This document shows, one piece after another, positions 3,318-53,000 of a DNA stretch of 64,000 nucleotides. Every line of letters begins with the position of its first letter. Within the stretch, counting starts at the first letter, position 1. Source of the stretch: a virus; IMG/VR virus record IMGVR_UViG_3300042482_000702, positions 11,355 to 75,354 of that record; one strand, 5' to 3'. The notes under the pieces were generated by a model. The model searched no databases. It saw nothing but the letters and a program-made list of their open reading frames with translations, and was not told the DNA's origin. The position numbers and the translations under genes were made by a program.

Positions 3318-3356
3318 AAAAACCCTCACTTAACGGTGGGGGTTTCTTTTTTAAAA
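3318..3356. terminator. bidirectional rho-independent terminator
   Basis: AAACCCTCAC-ttaacg-GTGGGGGTTT hairpin flanked by A-run and T-run between convergent genes. Confidence 0.55.
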
Positions 3357-3662
3357 TAAGTTGAGGTGTCTTATTTTTTTATTTGTTATTCTTTCAACAA
3401 TTTCAGTTAATAAAGGTTTTAAACTTTTATAATCAAGACCCAACTGAGTTGTGATATCACTAATGGTTTTAATACTAAAAGCGATATCATCACTTATTTC
3501 ATCATAAATAATAACAATATCACCATTTCTTGACGAAATCCATTGTTCTTCTTCACCATAAGTATCGTTTCGTCTCATTTTAGATACTACTTTTTTCTCT
3601 AAAGGCCCGATAAATTTAACAATAACATCCAATAATCTATTTTCAGTAATCAATACTTTCAT
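3351..3662 (-). CDS. MKxxITEN-leader family protein (103 aa)
   Basis: N-terminus MKVLITENRLLDVIVKFI matches shared leader. Confidence 0.55.
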   Translation of the reverse strand: MKVLITENRLLDVIVKFIGPLEKKVVSKMRRNDTYGEEEQWISSRNGDIVIIYDEISDDIAFSIKTISDITTQLGLDYKSLKPLLTEIVERITNKKIRHLNLF

Positions 3663-3758
3663 ACTAATAAATACTATTATTTTCCATTATAATGTAATAT
3701 AACCCAATATTAAGATGTTTTTTTCCACTAAAAGTGGTATTTTGGTAAATATTTTCCA

Positions 3759-4151
3759 CTATTCTATTGTTTTAACCGGAACATTAAAGTTATCCCAAAA
3801 CCAATCAATAAATGGTTGTTTCCATCTATCACCAAAAAGACTATTTAATTGGTCTAATTTATCGGAGTCTTCAAATTCTAATATCGGAGATTTATCAATC
3901 ATTTCTTTTAAAAAAACAGGACTTAAAGTTTCAGATTCTTCACTACGCCAATAATCTTCATCATACCATCTAAATAGAGTGTTATCACCATCATCTTCAT
4001 AATCATCTGTATAAAATTCTGTTGCGTAATCAACTTCATTACCCCAATCATCTATACCTGGTGTCCACCCAATATTATTAACATCAAACATACTATTCAG
4101 ATGTTTGATAATTAGTTCGTTAATCTTATTTTCGGTTATTATAATTTTCAT
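3759..4151 (-). CDS. MKIIITENK-family protein (130 aa), conserved WF..F..PVK C-terminus
   Basis: N-term MKIIITENKINELIIKHL; C-term LNSLFGDRWKQPFIDWFWDNFNVPVKTIE shared with paralogs at 23638, 23267, 25069, 15859. Confidence 0.6.
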   Translation of the reverse strand: MKIIITENKINELIIKHLNSMFDVNNIGWTPGIDDWGNEVDYATEFYTDDYEDDGDNTLFRWYDEDYWRSEESETLSPVFLKEMIDKSPILEFEDSDKLDQLNSLFGDRWKQPFIDWFWDNFNVPVKTIE

Positions 4152-4173
4152 CTTTATAAATATGTGTAAATTA

Positions 4174-4198
4174 AAAACCCCCCGAATCCGAGGGGTTT
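4174..4198. terminator. rho-independent terminator hairpin
   Basis: AAACCCCCCG-aatc-CGAGGGGTTT. Confidence 0.45.
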
Positions 4199-4201
4199 AA
4201 A

Positions 4202-4663
4202 TTATATTTCTTCACCAAATAAGTCATCTATCCATCTTTCGGGAACTAACACCACAATATACCCTTTTACCACATTAACTGCGGATGTTGGTAGTAAGTT
4301 ATTAATTTCCTCTAATAGTTCCTCATTCTCCTTAAAAACGATTCGTAATTTACCATCTTCAGCGGTATCAACAACTTTATGTCTATTATTTTCCATAATG
4401 GACTTAAAATTTTCTATATCTCCAAATTTATCTTCTGTTTCTTCTGGCTCAATATCCAAATCACCACCTAAAAATCTATCAGGAACATTACTTTCACCAC
4501 CACTTTTTAAATACTCAATCTCCTCATCAGTCATACCTTCTAACCCAACCTCGTTGTATAAGTCTAAGATACTATCGTAATAATCGGTATTAAATTGTTC
4601 CATCATAATTAATTTAATGATGTCTTTCAATTCAGATTCTGTTAATTTTATAATTTTTCCCAT
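4202..4663 (-). CDS. acidic protein with N-terminal leader (153 aa)
   Basis: MGKIIKLTESELKDIIKLIMMEQ leader helix; Asp/Glu-rich. Confidence 0.55.
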   Translation of the reverse strand: MGKIIKLTESELKDIIKLIMMEQFNTDYYDSILDLYNEVGLEGMTDEEIEYLKSGGESNVPDRFLGGDLDIEPEETEDKFGDIENFKSIMENNRHKVVDTAEDGKLRIVFKENEELLEEINNLLPTSAVNVVKGYIVVLVPERWIDDLFGEEI

Positions 4664-4705
4664 AATTTATTTTATTAATAAATATCTAACGAAATTAATT
4701 ATACA

Positions 4706-4828
4706 ATTTATCGTATTTTTTTAAAGGTAATATAAATTAGATGTAATAAAAATATTGTCGATATTAATACCATTAACCCCAATAACACAGCACTTCCGGT
4801 TATTATAAATTTAAAAAAAGTTTCCATT
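4706..4828 (-). CDS. small membrane peptide (40 aa, METFFKFIITGSAVLLGLMVLISTIFLL...)
   Basis: Short ORF with TM helix, TATCTTTG promoter element at 4844-4851 just upstream. Confidence 0.3.
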
Positions 4829-4858
4829 TTTATTTATTTTTCACAAAGATAGTAATAA

Positions 4859-5065: not shown

Positions 5066-5079
5066 GTAAATTTGATTGG

Positions 5080-5715: not shown

Positions 5716-5732
5716 GGATGGGGTTATTTTTT
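5701..5732 (+). terminator. rho-independent terminator
   Basis: AACCCCA-ccgattaagga-TGGGGTT + T-run. Confidence 0.45.
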
Positions 5733-7316: not shown

Positions 7317-7595
7317 TTATTCTGAAATATCCTCAATACCGGCTTCAGGAAAATTATCTTGGAGATACCTCAACATTAAATCATTTGAGTTTCCCCCAAA
7401 GAAATCCTCCAACTCATCTTCCATATCATAACTTGCAAATATAAAACTACTTTTATTTTTCCATCCAAAAACATCCCCATGATTTTTCCAATTTCGAAAC
7501 TCCCTATGCTCGGGGACATAAATTAAATTTGTTCGGTGATTAATATATTTAACGAACGCATCATACATTTTACTTTCGGTGATTATTATTTTCAT
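7317..7595 (-). CDS. MKIIITESK-family protein (~93 aa)
   Basis: Leader MKIIITESKMYDAFVKYI (start at internal ATG of track ORF). Confidence 0.55.
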   Translation of the reverse strand: MKIIITESKMYDAFVKYINHRTNLIYVPEHREFRNWKNHGDVFGWKNKSSFIFASYDMEDELEDFFGGNSNDLMLRYLQDNFPEAGIEDISE

Positions 7596-7596
7596 A

Positions 7597-7956
7597 TTAT
7601 TCATTAACAAAGTTATTTATTATATAATCTAACCCAATACCCAAATGTTTAATACCAAGAATGTTTAAAAAATCAGATTCGTCAATTTTACGATTTTGTT
7701 TTTCACTTAAAACTAATACACCATATTCTTTTTGAGGTTGGGCATAATAATTATTACCATTAATATGAAACAAATACATTGACCCATAATTGTTAAGTAA
7801 CCATCTAAACTCTTCTCTACCATCAGAGAACAAGTATTGACCTTTAGGTCCTAATTCAACCCAATTTGTAATCACCTCAATATGGTCGGATAAATTATAT
7901 CCCACCTCCTTGGTAATTAAATCTTTTATTTTATTTTCCGTGATTATAAATTTCAT
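7597..7956 (-). CDS. MKFIITENK-family protein (~119 aa)
   Basis: Leader MKFIITENKIKDLITKEV (start at internal ATG; track ORF extends over upstream gene). Confidence 0.55.
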   Translation of the reverse strand: MKFIITENKIKDLITKEVGYNLSDHIEVITNWVELGPKGQYLFSDGREEFRWLLNNYGSMYLFHINGNNYYAQPQKEYGVLVLSEKQNRKIDESDFLNILGIKHLGIGLDYIINNFVNE

Positions 7957-8239: not shown

Positions 8240-8881
8240 TTATTCAAATAAAAAAGGGGGTGGGGGGATTTGGAACCGACCGGAGGGAGTTCGGGTTATC
8301 AAACTATCATACACATTACAAATGTCTTGCTCATTAAGACCCAAGTATTTTTTTGTAATACACGTACTTAAATGACCAAATAATTCCTTCAATAAAATTA
8401 AACTTTCATTTGAATAATTATTCACTTCTAATACCCTTCTACCAAATGTTTTCCTAAAAGTATGTGTTGAAACATTCCCATCTAATTTTATTCTATACTT
8501 TTTTACCAATTCTTTAAGTTTTACATTCACATAAGATTTATCAATTGATTTAGTTCCGTACTTATTTATGAATATAAGTTGATTTAAATTAGTTATGTTG
8601 GATTTTAAAACAATCCTGTCAACAATCTCTTTTAAATCTTTATTTACTTTAACATTTCTTTGTTTTTTTGATTTTACCTCTCTGAATGTAAAAGTTTCAT
8701 TACTTAATAAATCTGAATAAGTAAGTTTTAATAAATCTGAAATCCTTAAACCTGTAAAAACCCCAATTGAAACTAAAAGACAGAATTTATAATGTTCATC
8801 TTTTTCTAATTTTGTAATTAATGATATAAAATCATTCCACTCAAAATATGCTGTAGTTATATTTTGTCCTCTGTTACTCAT
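8240..8881 (-). CDS. tyrosine recombinase / phage integrase family (213 aa, catalytic domain only)
   Basis: GLRISDLLKL (Arg I), HTFRKTFGRRV (HxxR), LLKELFGHLSTCITKKYLGL (His/Tyr) motif order typical of tyrosine recombinases. Confidence 0.7.
   Translation of the reverse strand: MSNRGQNITTAYFEWNDFISLITKLEKDEHYKFCLLVSIGVFTGLRISDLLKLTYSDLLSNETFTFREVKSKKQRNVKVNKDLKEIVDRIVLKSNITNLNQLIFINKYGTKSIDKSYVNVKLKELVKKYRIKLDGNVSTHTFRKTFGRRVLEVNNYSNESLILLKELFGHLSTCITKKYLGLNEQDICNVYDSLITRTPSGRFQIPPPPFLFE
8255..8296. repeat. att-like direct repeat copy A (part 1)
   Basis: Matches copy B with 2 mismatches; encodes integrase C-terminal PPPPFLFE. Confidence 0.6.
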
Positions 8882-8887
8882 AATATG

Positions 8888-9253
8888 TTATTTACTCATG
8901 TCGTATTTGAACTCTATATTGAATTCACATTGTTGTTCACATATCAAGTATCGTTCCACCATATCAACATAGTTTTTTGGGACATCAACGTATGAAAAGT
9001 ATTTTACCTTACACCTTCTATTAAGAATTATTTCATTATATTCATCATCATACTTACTTGGCATACCAACAAATAAATGGTTCATTAATCTTCCTCGAAT
9101 AGATGATACGGATTTCCCAATATACAATATTTCTTTATCCTCACCATATAGAAAATATACCCCTATTCTTTTATTATTAGGTAAATTATTCATACTCACT
9201 TCTAATATACCTGAAAAATTATCTATTGTATATTTTATTTCTTTACCTATCAT
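8888..9253 (-). CDS. GIY-YIG family endonuclease (121 aa)
   Basis: GVYFLYGEDKEILYIGKSVSSIRGRLMNH = GIY-(10)-YIG-...-R...H module. Confidence 0.6.
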   Translation of the reverse strand: MIGKEIKYTIDNFSGILEVSMNNLPNNKRIGVYFLYGEDKEILYIGKSVSSIRGRLMNHLFVGMPSKYDDEYNEIILNRRCKVKYFSYVDVPKNYVDMVERYLICEQQCEFNIEFKYDMSK

Positions 9254-9987
9254 TATTTTTTAATCTTTTCAAATAATAAAGCTTCCTTAACAATATCTTC
9301 ATTACCGGCAATAATTTTTTTAAGAACATCCCAATTATTGACTTTATTACTTGGTTCAACCCAATCCCCATTTTTAATCAACATCTTCTTAACTTTTAAT
9401 ATTGTATTTGTTGATTTATTAGTCACAACATTAATTAATCTACAGGTATACCCGGAATTAAGAAAATGAATAATATCTTCATGTTTTAATAAAAACATTG
9501 ATTCCAATTCTATTGAACCTTTTTTTCTACCAACAATACCACCATTAAGTAATTTATTTTGATATCCTCTTGCTAATCTTTTTTGAAGTTTACCAAGTTC
9601 TCTATTAGCGTATTCAATCTCAGTCATAAAAACAGGAATTGCATTTACATTTAATTTGTTATTAATTATGGTTTCCATTTCAATATCAACACAATATATT
9701 GAGACACCTAATTCATACAGTTCAGAAATTAATTCTTTACAATTGAAAGTATCTCTACTTAATCTTGATAATTCACTAACTACAATTTTATTAACTTTAT
9801 TTTCCCGAACATATTCTAACATAGAATCAAATCCTAAACGAGATTTTTTTAATCCACTATCAATATCTTCAAAATAAGACACAACAGACCATTTCTTTTT
9901 ATTACAAAAATCTAAAACATTAGACCTTTGAGACTTCATTTTTTGTTTGCTTGTAGAAATCCTACAGTAAATTACGACTTTATCCAT
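9253..9987 (-). CDS. serine recombinase (resolvase/invertase family, 244 aa)
   Basis: N-terminal VVIYCRISTSKQK catalytic-serine motif, resolvase core; start/stop overlap with neighbour. Confidence 0.8.
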   Translation of the reverse strand: MDKVVIYCRISTSKQKMKSQRSNVLDFCNKKKWSVVSYFEDIDSGLKKSRLGFDSMLEYVRENKVNKIVVSELSRLSRDTFNCKELISELYELGVSIYCVDIEMETIINNKLNVNAIPVFMTEIEYANRELGKLQKRLARGYQNKLLNGGIVGRKKGSIELESMFLLKHEDIIHFLNSGYTCRLINVVTNKSTNTILKVKKMLIKNGDWVEPSNKVNNWDVLKKIIAGNEDIVKEALLFEKIKK

Positions 9988-10005
9988 TTTTTATTTATTT
10001 ATTAT

Positions 10006-11712
10006 TTATTTATTTTTTAAATTAACCATATAAGAACATACCTCATCAAACCAACCATTTCTTTTTGCACCTTTGTAAGCACCTGAGTATAATTTTTGAA
10101 ATTCTGTTTTTGACCTACATTTTAAGGCAATCATTTCAACATTTTCTTTAATATCCCAATGCCCTATACTTTGTTTAGTTAATACCATATGCGAACATAC
10201 TTCATCCAACCACCCGTTTTTTAATGCCGAATTGTATGCCCCCCCGCAATGTTTGGAAAACTCAGACCTATTTTTATACTTCAATGATTCCTTTTTAATA
10301 TCCTCAATATTACCCCATTTTGAATTAAACTTTGGATATATGGAAAACACCTCATCCGACCATCCATTACTTCTAACAATCAAATAAGCTCCGGGACAAG
10401 ATTTTTTAAATTCTGTCTTTGACTTATATTTTTTCGCCTCATCTTTAATATCCTCAATGGTTTTCCATTTCCCATATAATATTTCCATATGAGAACATAC
10501 TTCATCTAACCAACCATTTCTTTTTGCGGATTTATACGCTGAAACATATAATTTATTAAATTCTGATTTTGTGTTACATTTTTTTGCAACCGTTTCAACA
10601 TTTGATTTAATATCCCAATATCCCATATCACCTTGTATTAGGTTTTCTTTAGGAAATAGAATATCCAACCAACCATTTCTATAAGCACCTTCGGATGCCG
10701 CTCTACATCCCCTCGCAAATTCTTTTCGGATTCTATATTTCACAGCTTCTTTTTGGACATTTTCAAAAATATCCCACTGACCACTCCTTAACACCATATG
10801 AGAACAAACCTCTTCTAACCAACCATTTTTGCGAGCAATTGATGAAGCCCCACCTGAATATCTATGGAAATCACTCCTATTGTCAAAAGTTAGCGCAATT
10901 TCTTTTATAGATTCTAAATCCCACATTCTTGAATAACTTCCTAAAGAACCGGATTTGGCTATGTTTACGGGATTGTAACCTAATTCAATGTAATTATCAA
11001 CCCATTTTTGTTCATATTCACCAGCAATATTAACATCAACAGGGGTTTCAGTAATTAATCTAAATATTGGAGAACCATATTCTTTTATGGTCTTAAATAC
11101 AATACAACTTTCAGTATTAAGATGTTCATTTTTCCTTCTTTTATAGTTTTCGGTTAAACCCACATAAACAAGTTTTACTTCTTCCCATATGAACGCGTAA
11201 ATATATCTAGGGGAGTCATTTATGTTTGGAGTCATATGTGAACAAACTTCATCATACCAACCTTTTCTACGAGCAATTTCAGCAACATATTTATGTTTAC
11301 CCTGACAAAAATCACTTCTATTATCATACATTAGAGCAATATCTTTAATCGATTCAAAATCCCACTTACTTTCACCTTTTTTAATCCCACATTTAATAAT
11401 CATATGTGAACAGACCTCATCAATCCAACCTTTTCTTACCGCTTGGAGATACGCTCCAGTATTTTGTTCATTAAATTCTGTTCGTGTTTCATATTTTAAC
11501 GCCACCTCCCAAACAGATTCTTTATTCCAAGAATTATTTCTTTTTTTAATAAGAGGTTGAGTTAATTCATCATACCAACCATTTTTTAGTAAAGAGTTAA
11601 GAATAGAAGTGCCTTGTAATTCATTAAGGTATGTCATATTAGATATACCCACCTTACATCTTTCGTATGTCCAATAACCGTAGGGTTTTTTTTCAGGTTT
11701 ATTTTCTATCAT
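10006..11712 (-). CDS. GIY-YIG domain protein flanked by ~11 tandem NGW.DEVCSHM repeats (568 aa)
   Basis: Central YIYAFIWEEVKLVYVGLTENYKRRKNEHL GIY-YIG core; repeated ~45-aa units ending (K/R)(N/K)GW(L/Y/F)DEVCSHM on both sides. Confidence 0.55.
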   Translation of the reverse strand: MIENKPEKKPYGYWTYERCKVGISNMTYLNELQGTSILNSLLKNGWYDELTQPLIKKRNNSWNKESVWEVALKYETRTEFNEQNTGAYLQAVRKGWIDEVCSHMIIKCGIKKGESKWDFESIKDIALMYDNRSDFCQGKHKYVAEIARRKGWYDEVCSHMTPNINDSPRYIYAFIWEEVKLVYVGLTENYKRRKNEHLNTESCIVFKTIKEYGSPIFRLITETPVDVNIAGEYEQKWVDNYIELGYNPVNIAKSGSLGSYSRMWDLESIKEIALTFDNRSDFHRYSGGASSIARKNGWLEEVCSHMVLRSGQWDIFENVQKEAVKYRIRKEFARGCRAASEGAYRNGWLDILFPKENLIQGDMGYWDIKSNVETVAKKCNTKSEFNKLYVSAYKSAKRNGWLDEVCSHMEILYGKWKTIEDIKDEAKKYKSKTEFKKSCPGAYLIVRSNGWSDEVFSIYPKFNSKWGNIEDIKKESLKYKNRSEFSKHCGGAYNSALKNGWLDEVCSHMVLTKQSIGHWDIKENVEMIALKCRSKTEFQKLYSGAYKGAKRNGWFDEVCSYMVNLKNK

Positions 11713-11724
11713 AATAATTTTTTA

Positions 11725-11732
11725 CAAAGATA
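11725..11732 (-). promoter_or_regulatory. TATCTTTG -7 promoter element for gene starting at 11712
   Basis: Exact motif 13 nt upstream of ATG. Confidence 0.4.
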
Positions 11733-11771
11733 TAATAAAGATTCCATACATCCAAATTTATTTTCAAAAAA

Positions 11772-11855
11772 AAGGGGGCGGGGGGATTTGGAACCGACCG
11801 GAGGGAGTCCGGGTGGTATGTCATCCCCCAATCCTATCTAAAGAAAATGGGGTTG
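11772..11855. repeat. att-like repeat copy B (part 1 + part 2)
   Basis: Part 1 matches 8255-8296; part 2 (CCCCAATCCTATCTAAAGAAAATGGGG) matches 12300-12328. Confidence 0.6.
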
Positions 11856-11887
11856 TATAATTAAATTATTATTTATATCTTTGTAAA

Positions 11888-12316
11888 ATGAAAAATAGTA
11901 TTACAATTTTATTAGATAGATGTTTTGAGTGTGGAACAATAGGTGATGTTGACTTACATCATGTTGTTCCCAAAAGTAAAGGGGGGACACAAATGATTCC
12001 ACTATGTTTATCCTGTCATTCAAAAGTTCACGGAGAACATATGTTAGAAATTAGAAAACTTGCGATGGAGGCAAAAAAAATAAAAATGAATGATTATAAA
12101 GAAAATGGAATACCCCATAATTTTGGTAGAAAAGTTGGGTCAAAAGAGAATAGAGAAACCTTTATGAATAAACAAACAACTAAAGACATTATTTATTTAT
12201 TATCATTCGAAGATAACACTATAAGAGAAATCGCCAAAATGGTTAAATGTTCAACAAGAACTGTTCAAAAAGTTAAAAAAATTATTAATGAATTAAATAT
12301 CCCCAATCCTATCTAA
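11888..12316 (+). CDS. HNH endonuclease (142 aa) with C-terminal HTH-like region
   Basis: CFECGTIGDVDLHHVVPKSKGG...CLSCHSKVHG = HNH motif with Zn-binding Cys pairs; TATCTTTG 5 nt before ATG (leaderless). Confidence 0.7.
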   Translation: MKNSITILLDRCFECGTIGDVDLHHVVPKSKGGTQMIPLCLSCHSKVHGEHMLEIRKLAMEAKKIKMNDYKENGIPHNFGRKVGSKENRETFMNKQTTKDIIYLLSFEDNTIREIAKMVKCSTRTVQKVKKIINELNIPNPI

Positions 12317-16668: not shown

Positions 16669-17232
16669 TTAATAGAATGTTTTTAATTTCATATACGGTT
16701 CCAAATTGTATTTGTCTATAATCTGTTTGAAGATTTGTTGTCTGTGTCTTAAACCTAATGTATTTTTTTGAGTGATAAATCCATAACCAAATCCTGAATC
16801 ACCACTTAATCCCACAACTTTATAATATGGTTGGTCATAAAGTTTTATTGGGTATAATCTTGCTGTGAACTTATACATCATATGGTCTTTGGCTCCGAAT
16901 TTAAAATCCCCCAATTCTTTTTCACCACGATGTTGTAATCGTGTATTATCATTTAGTCCAAGTTTTTCAACCAACGCGTCATGTAGATATAATGACTTTT
17001 TATCTACCGACATATAAGCCAATGGAGTATGAGTATCTTCACTGAACTTCATAATATCACCATCATAAAGAACACTTATTAAATAATCAATCCCACCTAT
17101 TAATTTAGATGTTACGTCTATCCCCAATTTTTTTAACATGGATTTCATAGAATCTTTTTTTGATTCAGATTCTTCGGTTATAAGTCCACCCATCATTTGA
17201 TGTATTCTATTTATATTCTCTTGTAAGTTCAT
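16669..17232 (-). CDS. MNLQENI-RI--MMG leader family protein (187 aa)
   Basis: Leader MNLQENINRIHQMMGGLITEE; homolog of 19151..19618. Confidence 0.55.
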   Translation of the reverse strand: MNLQENINRIHQMMGGLITEESESKKDSMKSMLKKLGIDVTSKLIGGIDYLISVLYDGDIMKFSEDTHTPLAYMSVDKKSLYLHDALVEKLGLNDNTRLQHRGEKELGDFKFGAKDHMMYKFTARLYPIKLYDQPYYKVVGLSGDSGFGYGFITQKNTLGLRHRQQIFKQIIDKYNLEPYMKLKTFY

Positions 17233-18255: not shown

Positions 18256-18819
18256 TTAAAGTCTCACAGGTATCTTATGTTTGGTACCATCAGTCCTTGA
18301 ATATACTGCGTGTTGTGGCGTCATCATCATTTCATTATGTTCATCACCCAACATATTAATATAATCATTACCTTTACCAGGTTTAAGATATGCAATTGTC
18401 ATATGTGGATGATAGTCCGGATAATCACTTGTGAATGGAAATTGTTTTAAATCCTCGTTTGTTTCATTTAAACTATCCCCCATTATATCATACTTTAATA
18501 CATCATATTTCGGGTTGTTGAAACAAGATAGATTATGAGCTTTACAATTTGTGTATGTATATTTGTTTAACACATTAATTATGTCGTCAATACTCACCTC
18601 GTTATCGTGTAATCCGTATAGTAATGTACAATGTGATTCAGGTTCTAAACCAAACCCCTCTTCTTCGGTGTATAAATCATCAGGGTTTATTTTGTTGTGT
18701 AATTCCGCAATAGAATCAGGGTTAAAGTATAACATCGCACAAGAATAAGGATATGTTTGTTTATTCTCATTTATCCCCATCATTGTTTTGATTTTTGTTA
18801 ACTGTTCGTTTAATTCCAT
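18256..18819 (-). CDS. 2H phosphoesterase (LigT / Acb1-like cyclic-nucleotide phosphodiesterase, 187 aa)
   Basis: Two H-x-T-h motifs (ESHCTLLYG and HPHMTIAYL) at the spacing typical of the 2H superfamily; N-terminal MELNEQLTKIKTMMG leader. Confidence 0.65.
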   Translation of the reverse strand: MELNEQLTKIKTMMGINENKQTYPYSCAMLYFNPDSIAELHNKINPDDLYTEEEGFGLEPESHCTLLYGLHDNEVSIDDIINVLNKYTYTNCKAHNLSCFNNPKYDVLKYDIMGDSLNETNEDLKQFPFTSDYPDYHPHMTIAYLKPGKGNDYINMLGDEHNEMMMTPQHAVYSRTDGTKHKIPVRL

Positions 18820-19150: not shown

Positions 19151-19618
19151 TTATTTGTAATAGTTTGATGCATCAACCATAAATAGGAAAACATCGTCTA
19201 ATGATTTATCATCCAAATCTGTATACTTCTTATTGTAGGATAATTTATGATATCCACCTTCATACACATCTATGGAGACAGTGTCCGAATAAAAATACTC
19301 AATTTGTTGTGCGGTATCATCATCAGGTGTACCATATGGAACGGCATTTAAACCTAATGTATATATAGAAACTCCGGTTGAATTATTTTCTTTTGATAAA
19401 TCTTGTACCACATCTTTAATAAAACCAATCTTTTGTTCGTTTGTTAAATTAATACTATCACCATACATATTCATAATAGAATCATAACCACCGAAAAGTT
19501 TAATGGTGTAATATAACCCCATCTTATCAATCATTTTGCTTATCTTTGCGGACTTATCATCCTCATTGATAACCCCCATCATTTGGTGGATTCTATGTAT
19601 GTTTTCGTGTAAGTTCAT
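19151..19618 (-). CDS. MNLHENI-RI--MMG leader family protein (155 aa)
   Basis: Leader plus homology to 16669..17232 (KLGI..T.KL.GG.D). Confidence 0.55.
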   Translation of the reverse strand: MNLHENIHRIHQMMGVINEDDKSAKISKMIDKMGLYYTIKLFGGYDSIMNMYGDSINLTNEQKIGFIKDVVQDLSKENNSTGVSIYTLGLNAVPYGTPDDDTAQQIEYFYSDTVSIDVYEGGYHKLSYNKKYTDLDDKSLDDVFLFMVDASNYYK

Positions 19619-19619: not shown

Positions 19620-20393
19620 TTATTTTTCTTCAGGCAATTTTGTATCCTTTATAAATTTCTTGTGAGAATCCTTATATGATTTTTGTGTCTCATCATTTAC
19701 ATCTTTGGTGTATTGCCAATTCCAATATAAATCATCGTTTGGTTTGAATCCGTAAAACTCATGAACTTCTTTTTGTGTTTCACTAACTACCTCACCATTC
19801 CAATTCTGACCGACACAGATAAATCCTGTCTCAATATCCTCAACAAGATTTGATTCCCCCAATGTTGCATGTCTATTCTCAATCCAAGTCAATCTCTCTA
19901 TTAGATTCTGATAAAACATATTGGTTTGTCCCCACCTTACCGAACTAAAGAATATAATTGCGTCTGACTCAAATAACTCTTTGGATATCTTCCATAGCTC
20001 ATCCTTTGGATTATTTATATTTGCCCAACATCTATGATTACCTGACGGATTTTTTTTCTTATCTTTGAGCATTGCCTTTAATACCCCACAACTATTTCCG
20101 TCTTTTCTTGAAACATTCCCTTCACAAGGAACTATGTTAAGTTCCGGAACATCAATTAGAACTGACTTGTCACCCAACTCATCGTTGAGGTACATCGCAA
20201 TCATTTTGGATTTTGGTATGTCTTGGTTTTTTTCATCCCAATTATATCTATTGGAACAACTTAGTAGTAATACCTTTTTCTTTTTCTTTAGAATGTCCAA
20301 TGTTTTCTTTACTGATTTCCATGCGTCCGATTGAACCATCTCCTCAGCAATCATCATTTCTCTTATTCTAATTATATTTTCCTGTAAGTTCAT
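19620..20393 (-). CDS. flavodoxin-like fold / NADPH-dependent FMN reductase-like protein with Cys cluster (257 aa)
   Basis: KKVLLLSCSNR (GSxR-like) and SDAIIFFSSVRWGQ blocks; CEG..C..C cluster; MNLQENIIRIREMM leader. Confidence 0.45.
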   Translation of the reverse strand: MNLQENIIRIREMMIAEEMVQSDAWKSVKKTLDILKKKKKVLLLSCSNRYNWDEKNQDIPKSKMIAMYLNDELGDKSVLIDVPELNIVPCEGNVSRKDGNSCGVLKAMLKDKKKNPSGNHRCWANINNPKDELWKISKELFESDAIIFFSSVRWGQTNMFYQNLIERLTWIENRHATLGESNLVEDIETGFICVGQNWNGEVVSETQKEVHEFYGFKPNDDLYWNWQYTKDVNDETQKSYKDSHKKFIKDTKLPEEK

Positions 20394-25035: not shown

Positions 25036-25062
25036 AAAGGAACCACCAAATAGTTCCCTTAT
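25036..25062 (-). terminator. rho-independent terminator
   Basis: AAGGAAC-caccaaata-GTTCCCTT + T9. Confidence 0.5.
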
Positions 25063-25068
25063 TTTTTT

Positions 25069-25404
25069 TTAACTTAAATCTTCTTTATCTTCCATATAAT
25101 GAACAATTTTAACCGGTAATTTAAATTTATCTTCAAACCAATGTTTTACTAACAATTTACTTTCATCCATTGAATAACTGAACCAAACTATAGGTGCGAG
25201 AATATCATCACAAATTGATAAAGTATTTAAATTTGGATTGTACACCATTATAATACCATCACCATTTATATAATTAACCAGAAAAACCTCCTTCCCTTGA
25301 CCATTTCTAATCTGTTTAGTTTTATTATACATTTTAGAAAATGTTTTATTCAAGTTTTTTATAGCTAATTCGTCTCTACGACTTTCCTTTATTAATAATT
25401 TCAT
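25069..25404 (-). CDS. MKLLIKESRRDE-family protein (111 aa)
   Basis: Tandem paralog of next gene (CDDILAPIV.FSY...K.LVK.WFEDKF.LPVKI). Confidence 0.55.
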   Translation of the reverse strand: MKLLIKESRRDELAIKNLNKTFSKMYNKTKQIRNGQGKEVFLVNYINGDGIIMVYNPNLNTLSICDDILAPIVWFSYSMDESKLLVKHWFEDKFKLPVKIVHYMEDKEDLS

Positions 25405-25419
25405 ATGTTATTTTATTTT

Positions 25420-25749
25420 TTAATTTAAAACACCTTTTTGTGTGTGATGAATAATTTTAACAGGTAATTCAAACTTATCTTCAAACCAATTTTTTACTAA
25501 CATTTTACTTTCATGTGGTGTATAACTGAAATAAACTATGGGAGCAAGAATATCATCACAAATGTATAAAGTACTCGCCCTTTCACCATAAATCATTATA
25601 ACACCATCACCATTTCTATAATCAATTCTCCTATGTTCTCCTGTTGAATCTGTAATATAATCAACATCAATATACATATTGGAAAATGCTTTATCCAACT
25701 CTTTTTTTGCCAATTCGTCTCTACGACTTTCTTTTATCACTATTCTCAT
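25420..25749 (-). CDS. MRIVIKESRRDE-family protein (109 aa)
   Basis: Paralog of 25069..25404. Confidence 0.55.
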   Translation of the reverse strand: MRIVIKESRRDELAKKELDKAFSNMYIDVDYITDSTGEHRRIDYRNGDGVIMIYGERASTLYICDDILAPIVYFSYTPHESKMLVKNWFEDKFELPVKIIHHTQKGVLN

Positions 25750-30286: not shown

Positions 30287-30919
30287 ATGAAAAATTTTAT
30301 ACTATACACCCTATTAATATTCTCTCTATCGTCTTACTCACAAGATTTAGTCACCATAAAACACACCAATTACACCACAACATTTAGTAAATCATTAAAG
30401 TATCCAATTGTTGTTGAATGGTGGGAGACAAAATCCAATGTTGCTTGTCCAACCCCATTGAAAAGAAAAGACCAATTCCAATCTGACCCACAATTATTAA
30501 AAGATACCAACCTAATGTCGGATTATGTTCGTTCAGGGTTTGATAGAGGACATATGAGTCCTGCAGCATCCAATCTATGTGGTGGTGATAAAGTTCTAAC
30601 AGAATGTTTTTACTTCTCTAATATGTCTCCCCAGACACATACATTAAACGCTGGTGATTGGAAATCGTTAGAAATGGAGACAAGAAGTATTGCAACCGAA
30701 AAAGATAGTGTACATGTGTGGTGTGGAAACATTGGTGTATTAAAAAAGATTGGTTCTGTTTCTGTCCCAACCAAATGTTGGAAGGTAATCTACATTAAAA
30801 AGACAAAGAAGTTTAAAGCGTATCTTTTCATTAACAATACATCTAAACCGGATGGTATAATAGACAATGAAGTAAGTGTTCTCTTCATCTCAAAACTAAC
30901 CGGATTAACATTTAAATAA
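30287..30919 (+). CDS. secreted DNA/RNA non-specific endonuclease (Serratia nuclease/EndoG family, 210 aa)
   Basis: N-terminal signal peptide MKNFILYTLLIFSLSSYSQ; catalytic SGFDRGHMSPAA (DRGH) and NMSPQ....W..LE blocks. Confidence 0.8.
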   Translation: MKNFILYTLLIFSLSSYSQDLVTIKHTNYTTTFSKSLKYPIVVEWWETKSNVACPTPLKRKDQFQSDPQLLKDTNLMSDYVRSGFDRGHMSPAASNLCGGDKVLTECFYFSNMSPQTHTLNAGDWKSLEMETRSIATEKDSVHVWCGNIGVLKKIGSVSVPTKCWKVIYIKKTKKFKAYLFINNTSKPDGIIDNEVSVLFISKLTGLTFK

Positions 30920-33276: not shown

Positions 33277-33900
33277 TTACCCAATTTTAGGTGGTAGTGG
33301 CGGGTCTAACAAAAACTTATCATTAACCCAATGTCTTAATTCATTCTCAACAAAATATTCAGGGACTTCTTCGTCTTCTGATTTTTCTGAAGCCAATTCA
33401 CTAATATGTTTAGCAAATTTAATTTTATATTTATCATTTAACATAGTCATTAATCCGTCAGATATGAAAAATATTTTAGAAAATGGGTCGTCTAAATGTA
33501 TTTCACCTTCGGCAACTTGAAAAGCTTTTAATATTAATTTACCCCAAAAAGTTTTATAACTTTCTGTTTCAGTTAAACTTGGTCGTAAAAGTTTATTAAC
33601 CGCTCTCATTGTACTGGCAATAATGCCCGGAATCATAAGTTGGGGTAAGAACCACGGTAATAATCTAATAGTTGTTTTTACACCACCTTCACCAACATGT
33701 CTAAACACTCTTCGTTTGGTTGCACTATCAACAATAGCCTTTAATTGCCCAAAAGTTATCTTACCTTGACTACTACAAAATCTCTCACTATCACAAATAT
33801 TTTTAATAGTTGTTTTTGACGGATGTACCTCTACGTTTTCAAATAATTTAATATATTGGGTTTCATTTACTATAATTCTCATATTTATAAATACATTCAT
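33277..33900 (-). CDS. hypothetical protein (207 aa)
   Basis: ORF. Confidence 0.5.
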   Translation of the reverse strand: MNVFINMRIIVNETQYIKLFENVEVHPSKTTIKNICDSERFCSSQGKITFGQLKAIVDSATKRRVFRHVGEGGVKTTIRLLPWFLPQLMIPGIIASTMRAVNKLLRPSLTETESYKTFWGKLILKAFQVAEGEIHLDDPFSKIFFISDGLMTMLNDKYKIKFAKHISELASEKSEDEEVPEYFVENELRHWVNDKFLLDPPLPPKIG

Positions 33901-38977: not shown

Positions 38978-39916
38978 TTAATGTATGAATTCAAATGTAG
39001 AATTATCCTCCGATAAATACTTTTCATTACTTGAGATTATTTGTCGTTTTATCCCATTTTCAACCTCTTCAACAAATCCCGGAATATTTTGGTAGTCATT
39101 ATCTACAACCATTTTATTATTAACAACTTTACCGGCTTTAATTATTGTAATAATAATTTTAATTTTCCCATCTTCTTCTTTAATATCTGAAATGGTATAA
39201 CTCACTTTTTTTGCCGTATCACCATAACCCAAAGTCAATAATTTTTTAGAACCAACTAATTCAGATTTAATTTTTGTTGTAAAATTTACCACTTTTGCAT
39301 TATTAATCTCCTCTAAAGTATAAACACCATACATAAGACCTTTAATATCGTCTTGAGTAACTTTTATAACATCACTCTTTAAATCCGAACTATAACTTAT
39401 CGGATTAACTTGGGACATTTGTTTTCTTGTAGAACTTGAATAGGTGTCAGAGGTTTTAAACCATTTATCATTAATAAATAAATAAACAGGATACCATCCA
39501 TATGATGTTATAACATAATACCATTCATTTTTTCTATTAACATCCCACTTACCTTCAATGTTTGAACCCTTAAAAGGAATTTTAGCTGAACTATATTCTG
39601 AAGCTTTATTATTTGGAGTCTTACTTTGTTTAAATAATCTATAATCTTTGAAGTTCTCTTTGGTTAAATTTTCATAGTCCCCGTCTTCCCTAAAATTCGC
39701 AGTATAAACCTCATAGTAGAATAAAGCATCGTTAGATGGTAACCCAAAAACATCCATCATCGATTTAATTAAATCAACTAATACTTTTTTAGTTTTTGTT
39801 TGATGTTTGTGTTTGTTAAGGTATTTGAAAAGTAATATTTCTTTTTTTGATAAAGGATTATCATTCTCACCACCCTCAAGTTGTTCTTTTAATATTTTCT
39901 TAATTAAATCTCTCAT
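38978..39916 (-). CDS. hypothetical protein with MRDLIKKILKEQ leader (~312 aa)
   Basis: Start set at internal ATG giving shared leader and abutting upstream stop codon. Confidence 0.5.
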   Translation of the reverse strand: MRDLIKKILKEQLEGGENDNPLSKKEILLFKYLNKHKHQTKTKKVLVDLIKSMMDVFGLPSNDALFYYEVYTANFREDGDYENLTKENFKDYRLFKQSKTPNNKASEYSSAKIPFKGSNIEGKWDVNRKNEWYYVITSYGWYPVYLFINDKWFKTSDTYSSSTRKQMSQVNPISYSSDLKSDVIKVTQDDIKGLMYGVYTLEEINNAKVVNFTTKIKSELVGSKKLLTLGYGDTAKKVSYTISDIKEEDGKIKIIITIIKAGKVVNNKMVVDNDYQNIPGFVEEVENGIKRQIISSNEKYLSEDNSTFEFIH

Positions 39917-47745: not shown

Positions 47746-48105
47746 TTAATCTAAACCTAAAAAATGAATACCTTTATCTATAATACTACCTTCTTGAGAT
47801 ACACAATCTTTAAAGATTTGAACATCCGAGTCAGGCATTTTATTTTGTGTTGCAGGACCCCAAACACCATCAACAGGATAAACACCAATTTTTGATTGAT
47901 ATTTACTCAACGCTTGTTTAACACTATCACCCAAAAGTCCATCAACTTTTAATGGTTGGTTTTTATCATCTCTGTGTCCTTTTTTATTTAAAAAACATTG
48001 GATACCCTTTTTTAATTCAGGACTCTCATTTTGTTCAGTAACCAATCCGTATATAGAACGGATGTCACTTCTTTCTTCTTCGGAAATTATAAATCTTTTT
48101 GCCAT
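47746..48105 (-). CDS. peptidoglycan-binding domain protein (119 aa)
   Basis: VDGLLGDSVKQALSKYQ...VDGVWGPAT = PG_binding_1 repeat signature. Confidence 0.5.
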   Translation of the reverse strand: MAKRFIISEEERSDIRSIYGLVTEQNESPELKKGIQCFLNKKGHRDDKNQPLKVDGLLGDSVKQALSKYQSKIGVYPVDGVWGPATQNKMPDSDVQIFKDCVSQEGSIIDKGIHFLGLD

Positions 48106-50023: not shown

Positions 50024-50251
50024 TTAATTTTGTTTATTTTCTAAATTTTCAATTCTACGATTAAGATACCATTGAGCTTTGAGTAAATCCTCCAATTCTT
50101 TCTCCGGATATTTCTTACCCGCCCTTGAGATATATTTCACCGTATTACCCAAATGAAAATCTAAAGACCAATTTTCTATCACCTTAATGGCTTCATATGG
50201 ATTATCTACTCCCCCATAATGCTCGGGGTTTTTTACCATTTCTTTACTCAT
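50024..50251 (-). CDS. DUF3310 family phage protein (75 aa)
   Basis: NPEHYGG...IE......FHLGNTVKYISRAGKK......DLLKAQWYLNRRI pattern of DUF3310. Confidence 0.55.
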   Translation of the reverse strand: MSKEMVKNPEHYGGVDNPYEAIKVIENWSLDFHLGNTVKYISRAGKKYPEKELEDLLKAQWYLNRRIENLENKQN

Positions 50252-50472
50252 AATTTTACTATATAATATTTACCTAATTTTATACTCTTTCTATAACCCT
50301 GTCTAACAGAAAACAATGGTTTTGTTGTTATTTTAAACCCAACCCCACTCTTACCTGAAATAAGATAAAACTGACTTTTAGATTTACCAATTAAGAGGGG
50401 AAAGTTAAATATTTTAATCACTGTTTGACTACAACCACTACCAATATGATATGTTTTTTTAGATAACCACAT
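50248..50472 (-). CDS. hypothetical protein (74 aa)
   Basis: ORF. Confidence 0.3.
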   Translation of the reverse strand: MWLSKKTYHIGSGCSQTVIKIFNFPLLIGKSKSQFYLISGKSGVGFKITTKPLFSVRQGYRKSIKLGKYYIVKL

Positions 50473-50641
50473 AAAACCCTTCTGCTATATTACTTTCTAC
50501 AATAATACCGGATTCTATTAAAAAATCCAGCTCTTTTTTTGTTTCTTCAATATTCTTTTTGAGAATATACTTTGAAATGTAGGTAATGTGGATTGGTTGT
50601 CTTAATTTACCAATCAAATTGTTAATTTGTTTTTCGTCCAT
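50459..50641 (-). CDS. hypothetical protein (60 aa)
   Basis: ORF. Confidence 0.3.
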   Translation of the reverse strand: MDEKQINNLIGKLRQPIHITYISKYILKKNIEETKKELDFLIESGIIVESNIAEGFYVVI

Positions 50642-50822
50642 AATTAAATTTTTCTTTAATTTTATCTTCTGTTAATCCTTTCATATACCATTTATAAACT
50701 TTAGATGATATTTTATCCGACAGAATTAACATATCCGATTTAAACAACAAAGTTAAACCTAAATTATTATTAAAACAATTTTTTACCGATTTTTTATCAA
50801 TTATTTTTTTGTTAAATCCCAT
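50622..50822 (-). CDS. hypothetical protein (66 aa)
   Basis: ORF. Confidence 0.3.
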   Translation of the reverse strand: MGFNKKIIDKKSVKNCFNNNLGLTLLFKSDMLILSDKISSKVYKWYMKGLTEDKIKEKFNYGRKTN

Positions 50823-51592
50823 TAAGACAATAATCTTTTATTTTGTTTTCCACTTTGATTTATATATGCTAATATTTTCCTTTTAAAGATTGGTATTAAT
50901 GTTTCCTCTAATGGAAAAATATCACTACAAAAAACTTCAAATAATGGATGTGATTCTTCATTATTCTTTTCATAAGTTTTAGAAAATTTAGATATAATTT
51001 GGGGAATTGTCAAATCGTCTTGGACTCCTTCATAAACTAATTTTAACGATGTTTTAGTTTGGTTTTTTGTTTTGTAAATTTTTCTTGTAGTATATTGCCA
51101 AATATATAATTTATCCGGTAATTTGTAGTAAAAAAACCCTGACTTGTTTGATAAATTATTTTTGTTTTTTTTCACAACAACATCTATGGAATCATAAACA
51201 ATACTCCAAATAGATTTTGCAAAATTAAAATAGTCGTATAATTGGGGTTGGCTATTTTTTAAAATTTTTCGGTATTCAATTACCTCTTCATCCGCTAGCA
51301 CGGGAATATCTTTAACTTTTAAATCTGAAAAAATTAATTCATCATCTTTTGATGATAATTTTCTATCAATATAAAGTATTTTGTTTTGAGTTAATAAAGT
51401 TTGCATATTACCCAAATGTAATGAAAGCTCAATAAACATTGGGTAAACCTCCATTTTCTCTAGATGTTTATTCATCTTTTGAAAATAGTCTAATAAAACA
51501 TATTGTTTCTGTTCCGCGTCAAGGACACCATCGAATAACCAATCGGTATTCATTATAAATGATGTCTTTTTATTTTTTTGTTTCTTTTCCAT
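50822..51592 (-). CDS. hypothetical protein (256 aa)
   Basis: ORF. Confidence 0.5.
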   Translation of the reverse strand: MEKKQKNKKTSFIMNTDWLFDGVLDAEQKQYVLLDYFQKMNKHLEKMEVYPMFIELSLHLGNMQTLLTQNKILYIDRKLSSKDDELIFSDLKVKDIPVLADEEVIEYRKILKNSQPQLYDYFNFAKSIWSIVYDSIDVVVKKNKNNLSNKSGFFYYKLPDKLYIWQYTTRKIYKTKNQTKTSLKLVYEGVQDDLTIPQIISKFSKTYEKNNEESHPLFEVFCSDIFPLEETLIPIFKRKILAYINQSGKQNKRLLS

Positions 51593-51641
51593 ATATTATT
51601 ATATTAATTATATGAAAATATATTAAAGAAATGAATAGTTT

Positions 51642-53000
51642 TTAATTAACTCTCATAACATAATATCTAGTATTGTTAACAACTACATCATCATATGTAC
51701 CATCGTATCCATTCATCACACCCCAACCATCTTCATCAACTAATCCTTGAGCTAAAGCATCTTTATCAATATAATCCTCAATACTTAATCCAAAATCACT
51801 CATATAAGATGTAATATCATTCTCAACATCTTTTAACATTGAGTCTACCTTATTATCAATCATATCTTGGGATGGTTCCATATCAACCTCAATATTATCT
51901 AATTCTTCTTGAAGATATTCTATGTGGTCTTGTGTTTGTTCATATTCTGTTGAATCCGAATCATCCATAATTATTAATCTTTCTTTATATTCTTCAATTT
52001 CAGATTCAAGTTGTTCTTTCCTTTCTTCTTGTTCTGAGGTTAACTCAAAATCATCATCACTAAAATAGACATCCGGTTCGTTAGCTATATCATTTTCATA
52101 AAAATCTCTAAAATAATCAAGAACCTCATCTTCATTAATATAACCATCAATAAAACCACTTCTAAAACCCTCAACACCCATATCATCAACTAAATTTTTT
52201 GAGTATTCTAATGCCGAAGTTTCCATCTCATCTTCTGTACCAACAGAATATTCTCTACCTTTAAATCCTGGTAGTAAAACCTCAAATTGGGATAAACCAT
52301 AATAACTGTAATTACCAGGGTACATATCATAAACATCCGCAACATCTTCTGTTAACCCATCAATTTCTTCTTGAATTTCCTCAATAGTATTTAATATTTC
52401 AACATTTTCATCGGGGTCACCTTCTCTATCTTTATCTTCATACTGAGCTTCAAGGTCTTCTTTCTTTTTTATTAATACCGATAATTTTTCTTTATCATCC
52501 TCATCTAAAACTTTTACATCACCCTCTTGGTCTAAATATTCTAATAACGCTTGAGCCTTCATACCTAACTCGTCTTCTTTTTCAAGATTCCAATCATCAC
52601 CATTTCTATATTCATTCATGGTTTCTTTCATCTTATTTAACTCCTCCAATTCTCGTCTTTTTTCTCGAGGTGAACCGTAATCACTAATATAACCTTTAAC
52701 TTTCGTATTTGATACATCAGACACACTAGTACGACTAATATCTAAATTTCCGTCAATATATCCAATATTACCCAATGAAGTTGTTGGTGTATTTGCAAGA
52801 TTTAAATCACCGGTTATCCATATTGGTTTTCCACCAAATTTTTTAAGATTCGTGACAGAATTACCGTTGTAACTAGTTAAAACCATTAAGTCCGTATATT
52901 CTTTAGGCGTCATTTTATAATAATCATCCTCAACTTGTTCAACAATTGTTTTAATAAAACGATATAACCCTTCTTCCGTAAGTCTAATTTTTCTACTCAT
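51642..53000 (-). CDS. large acidic hypothetical protein with MSRKIRLTEEGLYRFIK leader (452 aa)
   Basis: Long ORF; Asp/Glu-rich. Confidence 0.55.
   Translation of the reverse strand: MSRKIRLTEEGLYRFIKTIVEQVEDDYYKMTPKEYTDLMVLTSYNGNSVTNLKKFGGKPIWITGDLNLANTPTTSLGNIGYIDGNLDISRTSVSDVSNTKVKGYISDYGSPREKRRELEELNKMKETMNEYRNGDDWNLEKEDELGMKAQALLEYLDQEGDVKVLDEDDKEKLSVLIKKKEDLEAQYEDKDREGDPDENVEILNTIEEIQEEIDGLTEDVADVYDMYPGNYSYYGLSQFEVLLPGFKGREYSVGTEDEMETSALEYSKNLVDDMGVEGFRSGFIDGYINEDEVLDYFRDFYENDIANEPDVYFSDDDFELTSEQEERKEQLESEIEEYKERLIIMDDSDSTEYEQTQDHIEYLQEELDNIEVDMEPSQDMIDNKVDSMLKDVENDITSYMSDFGLSIEDYIDKDALAQGLVDEDGWGVMNGYDGTYDDVVVNNTRYYVMRVN

Follow-up and report, generated by a model that had tools for sequence, protein, structure and literature searches.

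Exchangeable N-terminal leader peptides on unrelated phage proteins: a candidate counterpart of the T4 capsid-targeting sequence

In phage T4, capsid-targeting sequences (CTSs) are known from about five proteins (among them the internal proteins IPI, IPII, IPIII and Alt, which the gp21 prohead protease processes), whose genes are variable and include those for counter-defence proteins. T4 CTSs are N-terminal propeptides of 10–20 residues, and the proteases of T4, phiKZ, 201phi2-1 and SPN3US cut after Glu (PMC5694885). Processing of the IPIII CTS is controlled by residues 8 and 10, with Asp at position 10 blocking it, gp21 itself carries LIE-9, and the CTS has been proposed as a general means for T4-like phages to load varied proteins (PMC9026906). 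In phiKZ, 201phi2-1 and SPN3US, a protease related to that of T4 cuts many head proteins behind Glu, and paralogues share identical N-termini (PMC5694885), but the propeptides are mostly longer than 100 residues, have an (S/A/G)-x-E motif and include no short cassette on unrelated bodies. Enzymes are also sent to bacterial microcompartments and encapsulins by encapsulation or cargo-loading peptides, which consist of an amphipathic helix and a flexible linker and are not removed. Encapsulin shells have the HK97 fold, and their cargo-loading peptides are usually C-terminal. Here we analyze 64,000 nucleotides of viral DNA (IMG/VR record IMGVR_UViG_3300042482_000702, positions 11,355 to 75,354; this whole stretch is called the window), in which many open reading frames (ORFs) begin with one of a few short shared leaders, together with loci from related viral contigs, which are numbered L001 and upward.

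The leaders resemble T4 CTSs in being strictly N-terminal and portable, in ending with a hydrophobic residue-x-Glu (phi-x-E), in a length of 7–22 residues and in the variability of the genes that carry them, which include a putative counter-defence enzyme; in addition, relatives of the window encode a gp21-family protease and a gp23-type capsid protein. They differ from T4 CTSs in that at least three to four families occur side by side and are swapped, in their Bacteroidota hosts, in cargo that includes ordinary enzymes, and in scale, since a single genome has dozens of such genes and the clade has over 150 clusters of protein bodies with a leader. Their helix-and-linker design also recalls encapsulation peptides, but no genes for such shells were seen here, only those for a phage capsid. 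Our combined findings suggest, from sequence and by analogy, that the leaders are portable targeting propeptides of the T4 CTS kind in an expanded form, with several interchangeable families and dozens of cargo genes per genome, an interpretation that we favour over its rivals but regard as evenly poised.

The original prediction, made from the letters of the window, had proposed a shared leader on about 25–30 proteins. This is borne out by a count of 22 ORFs with a clear leader and three with a loose one, that is, 22–25 of about 103 ORFs, or about a quarter. Three leader types are found: MK-I-I-I-T-E (MKIIITE-type, 12 ORFs), M..KI.LTE.(E/D)L (LTE-type, three ORFs) and MNLQENI.RI..MMG.I(N/T)E (MNLQENI-type, four ORFs), the last with a variant ..IRRILREE (RILREE-type, three ORFs). 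The MMG and RILREE forms are variants of one leader, as hybrids such as MNLQENIRRILREE show. The leader ORFs are as follows, with slashes placed after the motif ends.

3351–3662, minus strand: MKIIITE-type leader protein, MKVLITE/NR, 103 aa
3759–4151, minus strand: MKIIITE-type leader protein, MKIIITE/NK, 130 aa, acidic (isoelectric point 4.1), conserved family
4202–4663, minus strand: LTE-type leader protein, MGKIIKLTE/SELKDIIKLIMME, 153 aa, acidic
7317–7595, minus strand: MKIIITE-type leader protein, MKIIITE/SK, 92 aa
7597–7956, minus strand: MKIIITE-type leader protein, MKFIITE/NK, 119 aa
15859–16212, plus strand: MKIIITE-type leader protein, MKFIITE/NK, 117 aa
16306–16662, minus strand: RILREE-type leader protein, MNLQTTIRRILRE/ES, 118 aa
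16669–17232, minus strand: MNLQENI-type leader protein, MNLQENINRIHQMMGGLITE/ES, 187 aa
18256–18819, minus strand: MNLQENI-like leader, MELNEQLTKIKTMMGINE/NKQ, on Acb1-like 2H phosphodiesterase, 187 aa
19151–19618, minus strand: MNLQENI-type leader protein, MNLHENIHRIHQMMGVINE/DD, 155 aa
19620–20393, minus strand: MNLQENI-type leader, MNLQENIIRIREMMIAEE/, on WrbA/flavodoxin-like protein, 257 aa
23267–23638, minus strand: MKIIITE-type leader protein, MKILITE/NK, 123 aa
23638–24033, minus strand: MKIIITE-type leader protein, MKIVITE/NK, 131 aa
25069–25404, minus strand: MKIIITE-type leader protein, MKLLIKE/SR, 111 aa
25420–25749, minus strand: MKIIITE-type leader protein, MRIVIKE/SR, 109 aa
25746–26360, minus strand: RILREE-type leader protein, MRDLIKKILRE/EV, 204 aa
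26362–26976, minus strand: MKIIITE-type leader, MKIIITE/LQ, on a 204-aa body
28630–30225, minus strand: loose case, MKLIE/SIKQIITE/AS, 531 aa, acidic
33277–33882, minus strand: MKIIITE-type leader protein, MRIIVNE/TQ, 201 aa
36424–36963, minus strand: MKIIITE-type leader protein, MKFILTE/SK, 179 aa
38978–39916, minus strand: RILREE-type leader protein, MRDLIKKILKE/QL, 312 aa
40535–40849, minus strand: LTE-type leader protein, MKNIILTE/KQFEKL, 104 aa
45385–46794, minus strand: loose and doubtful case, DHH phosphoesterase starting MKKLIIE/SG
47746–48105, minus strand: loose case, MAKRFIISE/EE..GLVTE/QN, on PG_binding_1 protein, 119 aa
51642–53000, minus strand: LTE-type leader protein, MSRKIRLTE/EGLYRFIKTIVE/Q, 452 aa, very acidic

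The flavodoxin-like protein of the original prediction is the WrbA-like ORF at 19620–20393, and the DHH phosphoesterase that it also listed is doubtful as a leader protein, as its N-terminus may simply be part of the DHH fold.

The position of the leaders is fixed relative to the initiator Met. When the window was translated in six frames, the pattern [IVLF][IVL][IVL][TKN]E[NSLT] had 13 matches, 12 of which lie at residue 3 after M[KR], each heading an ORF of at least 90 aa. The patterns MNLQENI.RI..MM, I[KR][KR]IL[RK]E[EQ] and (K/R)..LTE occur in the window solely 3–6 residues after a Met. Overall, 26 of the 103 window proteins have [LIV]xE within residues 2–10, compared with 11.6% of internal 9-aa windows. 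The same position was found in relatives, for which the offset to Met was tallied as a histogram over 1.39 Mb of loci plus the window. The MNLQENI core lies exactly two residues after Met in 216 of 248 distinct matches, the MKIIITE core one residue after Met in 125 of 145, and the LTE core no more than six residues from Met in 60 of 61. Only the LTE count is unbiased, because the loci were retrieved with the other two patterns and the LTE core was used to fetch none.

Ordinary AT-rich N-terminal bias was rejected as the source of the leaders because structural and early genes lack them. Secretion or lipoprotein signals (Sec/Tat/lipoprotein) were rejected by inspection: Glu, Asn, Arg or Lys recurs every 2–4 leader residues and there is no hydrophobic core of at least 10 residues, whereas the true signal peptides of the window look different, for example that of 30287–30919, which starts MKNFILYTLLIFSLSS. 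Pfam and PHROG scans of 20 leader proteins gave no family spanning the leaders, and the leaders were not described in the literature covered by full-text searches, which were aimed at the peptides themselves and at systems of the CTS kind in huge phages.

Over 160 IMG/VR loci have leader motifs, and the bodies behind them form at least 150 clusters. When MKIIITENK was searched as a degenerate DNA pattern, it matched 40 IMG/VR loci, frequently in tandem arrays, and three contigs, all from metagenome-assembled genomes, among 185,579 prokaryote genomes. The corresponding pattern for MNLQENI.RI had at least 120 IMG/VR matches, with 115 distinct complete proteins of 51–664 aa. In total, 379 leader proteins fell into about 154 body clusters, 21 of which have more than one leader class; this number is approximate because, under single linkage, secondary modules common to 79 proteins drew them together into one cluster. 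On inspection of their sequences, the bodies include P-loop kinases, PCD-like, ParB-like, Zn-ribbon and peptidoglycan (PG)-binding proteins and WrbA-like flavoproteins, as well as many unknowns. Thus, the claim that the bodies are unrelated holds across the clade. It fails for the small MKIIITE proteins of the window (about nine, 92–131 aa), which are weak full-length paralogues sharing a C-terminal WF..F..PVK motif. Neither does the description "small hypervariable proteins" fit 3759–4151: this family is conserved and folded rather than hypervariable, since it has 112 orthologue clusters at 50–92% identity.

The leaders are modular units that are exchanged on orthologous bodies, so that the same leader is found on unrelated cargo and different leaders on the same cargo. 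The orthologue of 26362–26976 in L001/L008 (58% identity) starts MSLQDTIRRILREE rather than MKIIITELQ, and the C-terminal 58 aa of this protein form a separate gene in L030 with its own MKIIITEEQ leader. Likewise, 16669–17232 starts MNLQENINRIHQMMG in the window and its orthologue in L030/L025 (39% identity) begins MRILIKESAGEKL. Bodies of the PCD-like, ParB-like "GLHDTSW..DGHHR" and "DPKTGTGKKP" kinds have two or three leader types apiece. The widest range was found for the Acb1-like enzyme, whose 120 orthologues have at least five leader types (MKLNEELTKMKSMMGLNE, MENNQFKRMQKLAGIITE, MIKLLDLLKE, MKTIKDFITE and ..KKFMSLLTE), all of which end in phi-x-E 2–6 residues ahead of the enzyme core.

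One subfamily has a second conserved module, G(L/V/I)x6-7(L/M/F)(G/M)GGxxxh, behind the leader, whatever the leader type; it is present in 16669–17232, in 19151–19618 and in many loci (L018, L025, L029, L001), and it chained the clustering. A 451-aa ORF of L152 (IMGVR_UViG_3300033995_001164) has an internal MNLQENI-type leader (..FKFNHLKQPGLQENIHRIQSMMGVINESKL..) and, judged by its sequence, looks like an in-frame fusion of two adjacent genes, the upstream half being homologous to window ORF 38978–39916. Outside these relatives, about a dozen ORFs of L041 (LR745206.1, a 634-kb uncultured phage, 55122–95859) share a recurring MKYLKxFExF N-terminus (for example MKYLKPYKKFIE, MKNLKTFEAYDY and MKYLKLFEGVD). 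Other huge-phage lineages may therefore have leader alphabets of their own. These ORFs lie close to a homologue (58% identity) of the ClpP-like gene of the window.

The end of the leader is the same whether it has 7, 10, 19 or 22 residues: [LIV][ILV][NT]E, or at least [LIV]xE, followed at once by a short polar linker that leads into the body. At the sequence level, the leaders thus have the hydrophobic-x-Glu end of a CTS (P3 Leu/Ile, P1 Glu). In an alignment of 38 diverse Acb1-like sequences the terminal Glu is kept in at least 90%, while the rest of the leader is variable. Among 78 MNLQENI representatives, one per body cluster, this Glu (that of the first [LIVM]xE from residue 12 onward) is at position 18 or 19 in 38; in RILREE forms it is at position 13. 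Within their first 25 residues, 61.5% of leader proteins have the motif [LIVMF][LIV][NTS]E, as do 5.7% of other proteins, a comparison that is partly circular as the search pattern of the two short leader types contains the motif.

Codon usage indicates that selection acts on the leaders at the peptide level, with the start of MNLQENI excepted as a puzzle. The original prediction had argued for this over a shared recombination box, quoting correctly a difference between ATGAAAATTATAATAACCGAA at 4151 and ATGAAATTTATAATCACGGAA at 7956. The argument stands for MKIIITE, in which each of the four Thr codons is used nearly as often as in the bodies and synonymous usage is roughly body-like, with some excess of ATA and ATC at Ile codons. 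It also stands for residues 8–19 of MNLQENI, where amino acids are conserved and codons follow body usage. The conserved positions L3, I7, R9, I10, M14 and G15 of this leader form one helix face, and positions 8, 11 and 12 vary.

In three loci reached through the leader patterns (L143, L142 and L135), we found a T4-type head module comprising TerL (phrog_2), portal (phrog_213), proteins of 245 and 141 aa, a protease, a very acidic scaffold-like protein of 391 aa and a capsid protein of the Gp23 family (PF07068, E = 1e-71). The protease (227 aa) belongs to Peptidase_S77 (PF03420, E = 9e-21), the family of T4 gp21, and in relatives it has GILIE at residues 12–16. S77 proteases were found in 537 viral contigs and 5,586 protein clusters, and nine contigs gave both a leader locus and the protease. 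In a further locus (L043), an MKIIITENK protein is encoded two genes downstream of a divergent S77 protease. Thus, the protease is seen in the leader-bearing loci L143, L142, L135 and L043, and also in Flavobacterium phage immuto, the nearest isolate. Conversely, among 80 head loci retrieved without reference to leaders, 27 contain leader ORFs, and their TerL, portal, protease and capsid-protein genes have no leader. Of the head-module loci, 27 have a homologue of 19620–20393 (80–82% identity) at a distance of 4–5 kb from their S77 protease.

The capsid protein has the same motif at its predicted maturation site. All 16 variants read ...NIAQLYENQASYLINE/AAVADASG there (YLINE/A), and the stretch ...ENQASYLINE/AAVADASG is invariant. 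Residues 70–106 of the capsid protein align with residues 26–62 of mature T4 gp23*, and T4 gp23 loses its first 65 residues (PMC9958956), which together place LINE/A as the last hydrophobic-x-Glu before the mature region. Phage immuto (vB_FspM_immuto_2-6A, NC_055915; L245/L244) has the same module order, 42% capsid-protein identity and IVSE/A at the position aligned with YLINE/A. Two of its proteins (25061–25456 and 111675–112139) start MKKQILSEQF.RMQ.LAGIITE, and three others (1803, 117631 and 118632), two of which are just upstream of TerL, share M(E/AD)NF(D/N)LKKFLVENKLT. No proteomics of phage immuto was found in the literature searched; it would be a usable experimental model.

Two promoter-like motifs divide the window genes into two classes. 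Motif A, TAT[CA]TTTG, which we take to be the Bacteroidota sigma-A -7 box, is upstream of 13 window genes (for example at 896, 6138, 11732, 11876, 20434, 32466 and 38915), none of them leader-bearing (Fisher p = 0.035). Motif B, ATATTTAT, is often exactly 12 nt ahead of the ATG (for example at 4163, 7968, 15845, 17244, 20405, 24045, 53012 and 55699), and the resulting 4-nt spacer implies near-leaderless mRNAs. It precedes 10 of 25 leader genes in the window and 6 of 78 others (Fisher p = 4e-4). In relatives, TATTTAT lies 11–13 nt upstream of 29–65% of leader genes, compared with 0–5% for the host-type TAnnTTTG box, and is also upstream of the portal, TerL and S77 genes. Since these three genes are transcribed late (Chen et al., PMC9723584), the shared motif suggests that the leader genes are probably late genes as well.

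Structure models, a comparison of which the original prediction had proposed, show a leader helix for the Acb1-like enzyme but not for the MKIIITE family. In an AlphaFold2 model of 18256–18819 (38-sequence alignment), the body has a predicted local distance difference test score (pLDDT) of 85–98 and residues 1–20 have a pLDDT of 44–49, with a helix at 3–13 and coil thereafter up to the first strand at residue 26. The leader is thus modeled, at low confidence, as a helix detached from the body. The body is a predicted member of the Acb1 family of 2H phosphodiesterases that act against the cyclic oligonucleotide-based antiphage signaling system, as judged from sequence (Pfam PF23474, 30.5 bits vs a gathering cut-off of 27) and model (Foldseek matches that include phage phosphodiesterases and Acb1, 7t26 and 7t27). 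In the model of 3759–4151, residues 1–6 are coil and a helix starts from E7 inside a confident fold (pLDDT 89), for which no relative was found in the PDB.

The processing enzyme suggested by the original prediction was a protease of the ClpP family, encoded as follows.

1171–1905, plus strand: ClpP-family protease, true ClpP family, in a motif-A operon

This part of the proposal was not upheld, nor was a role of this gene as a ClpP/S49-type head-maturation protease. It lies outside a head module, its operon has a host-type TATCTTTG box, and its neighbours are nucleotide-metabolism genes and small unknown genes: those to its left, beyond the window, include genes for thymidylate synthase, serine hydroxymethyltransferase (SHMT) and FKBP. 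The head module of relatives has the S77 protease instead, and the T4-type L/I-x-E specificity belongs to the S77 family, to which ClpP is unrelated. The ClpP gene is probably unconnected to the leaders. In L247 and L248, about 4–6 kb to the left of the ClpP gene, thymidylate synthase is split by an I-TevI-like homing-endonuclease ORF, while in L250 it is intact and adjoins the SHMT gene, an arrangement that recalls the T4 td intron.

Apart from the ClpP assignment, the proposal of a removable, T4 CTS-like leader gains substantial, if indirect, support from the modularity of the leaders, their [LIV][ILV][NT]E end, the S77 protease and YLINE/A site of relatives and the shared promoter motif. 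We infer docking, cleavage, packaging and ejection as follows. A leader of 7–22 residues, in its long forms an amphipathic helix with a conserved hydrophobic stripe (L3, I7, I10, M14), would dock the nascent cargo on the scaffold inside a T4-type prohead. Once the shell is assembled, the protease of the gp21 family (Peptidase_S77) would cut behind the Glu of [LIV][ILV][NT]E, the same motif as that of the predicted capsid-protein cut YLINE/A. The mature cargo would then be released inside the head and enter the host with the DNA. Predicted cargo includes small acidic tandem-array proteins, the Acb1-like cyclic-nucleotide phosphodiesterase, a peptidoglycan-binding protein and the WrbA-like flavoprotein in the window; in relatives, kinases, ParB-like proteins and a protein that looks PCD-like from its sequence are added.

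Several observations weigh against such capsid targeting. With about one gene in four bearing a leader, those for metabolic enzymes among them, the capsid load would be implausibly heavy and odd. The phi-x-E motif is low in information, with about 12% of random 9-aa windows containing one, and inside the bodies of leader proteins [LIVMF][LIV][NTS]E is only weakly depleted (1.03 vs 1.40 per 1000 aa, about 1.7 standard deviations). The small MKIIITE family has merely 6–7 residues ahead of a helix that belongs to the fold. The S77 protease is known from relatives and not from the 322-kb genome to which the window itself belongs, and contigs with a window-like ClpP gene share none with the 80 listed S77 contigs. 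A tblastn search of leader proteins against GenBank phages had no match, which leaves no cultured close relative. Beyond Met and the terminal phi-x-E, the leaders have no sequence similarity to the IPII/IPIII CTSs of T4; for this reason, and for want of a Pfam or PHROG family, the system would be CTS-like in its working but not homologous. Finally, the codon argument breaks down for the first seven codons of MNLQENI (loci L045–L163, first 21 nt), which are non-neutral and favour rare synonymous codons: AAC is used in 80% of leaders vs 24% in bodies, CTA in 54% vs 10% and ATA in 95% vs 45%. This bias could reflect a constraint at the RNA or DNA level or recent spread by recombination.

The last point fits an expression or recombination cassette, in which promoter, start region and first codons would sit together on horizontally acquired genes, with the peptide as a passenger. 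Such a cassette could serve translation in a Bacteroidota host that lacks Shine-Dalgarno sequences, as well as provide homology for cassette exchange. TATTTAT at a fixed spacer of 4–6 nt before many leader ATGs, suggestive of near-leaderless mRNAs, and the leader swaps on orthologous bodies are in line with it, and phages of the clade have a gene of their own for ribosomal protein bS21 (PMC9723584). Nonetheless we consider a cassette improbable. Neither the body-like codons behind the conserved residues 8–19 of MNLQENI nor the near-background use of all four Thr codons in MKIIITE would be expected of a passenger peptide; genes inside operons have leaders although the motif does not precede them, late structural genes have the motif but no leader, and the conserved terminal Glu is left without an explanation. 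The same Glu is a difficulty for an uncleaved docking or oligomerization helix that would recruit many accessory proteins to one shared hub of phage or host (such as a scaffold, condensate, membrane or ribosome) without any capsid loading. Here the single conserved face of the long amphipathic leaders, the flexible linker between leader and body, and metabolic enzymes, which fit the cytoplasm better, are readily understood. However, a docking helix accounts neither for a common [LIV]xE end with near-invariant Glu on dissimilar leaders of 7, 10, 19 and 22 residues nor for its equality with the predicted capsid maturation site, and the 7-residue MKIIITE is too short for a helix and is coil in the AlphaFold2 model. 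We therefore think it unlikely.

That the leaders are degrons, or recognition tags for scheduled degradation by the phage ClpP (1171–1905) with a host unfoldase, seems very unlikely. The window does encode a ClpP homologue, and M-basic-phi-phi-phi reportedly resembles a published N-terminal recognition motif of ClpX. But the MNLQENI and LTE leaders misfit M-basic-phi-phi-phi, none of the genes seen in the window is ClpX-like, the ClpP gene is in a nucleotide-metabolism neighbourhood behind a host-type promoter, and the terminal phi-x-E again goes unaccounted for.

The window is AT-rich (~30% GC) and tightly filled with small genes, chiefly on the minus strand. Recognizable genes encode a nitroreductase, an NS-type endonuclease with a signal peptide, an SPFH protein, a nucleotidyltransferase of the poly(A)-polymerase family and a NUDIX protein; further accessory genes encode an N6/N4 DNA methylase, a GH12-like protein, recombinases, a GIY-YIG-type homing endonuclease and fibre-like proteins at the right end. 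A mobile-element-type cluster at 8240–12316 contains a tyrosine recombinase (8240–8881), a serine recombinase (9253–9987), a 568-aa repeated GIY-YIG-type homing endonuclease (10006–11712) and an HNH-like ORF (11888–12316), the last two with host-type boxes. At 62800–64000 (minus strand), a long collagen-like Gly-X-Y gene of imperfect repeat units continues past the right end of the window and adjoins fibre-like ORFs of 1261 and 965 aa; the ORFs called there (62841–63992) are in the wrong frame. ARAGORN called a tRNA-Leu(TAA) at 54644–54732 (minus strand) inside a 476-aa beta-propeller (DUF5122) ORF (54257–55687); either the tRNA is a false positive or the ORF is mis-called. The window had no nucleotide match among GenBank phages and no match in an Rfam scan, and a search of IMG/VR for one exact 44-mer of it found none. 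Three window proteins have exact copies on a 322,477-bp contig, the closest IMG/VR relative is a 208-kb contig with 81–98% protein identity, and wider relatives are viral contigs of 50–335 kb. These relatives fit the freshwater Bacteroidota-infecting "bS21" huge phages of Chen et al. (PMC9723584).

Taken further, capsid targeting by the leaders suggests, somewhat tentatively, that a clade of freshwater huge phages (about 200–335 kb, Bacteroidota hosts) loads dozens of proteins per genome into a T4-type capsid by means of interchangeable N-terminal "address labels" and injects them with its DNA. Enzymes for counter-defence or metabolism and proteins that bind the cell wall would be among them, and how many copies of a protein are loaded, or where in the prohead core it sits, might depend on the leader type. 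Should the leaders not act in this way, exchangeable N-terminal modules that are conserved as peptides on more than 150 protein families would still need a new explanation. If they do, the injected cargo of uncultured, globally abundant huge phages would become predictable from sequence, and hundreds of unknown proteins would be nominated as first-strike effectors, the Acb1-like phosphodiesterase and the small acidic proteins of the tandem arrays being examples. Foreign proteins could be given short tags for packaging into Bacteroidota phages, and the principle of the T4 CTS, so far seen in only a few proteins, would prove to have been scaled to a general modular system.

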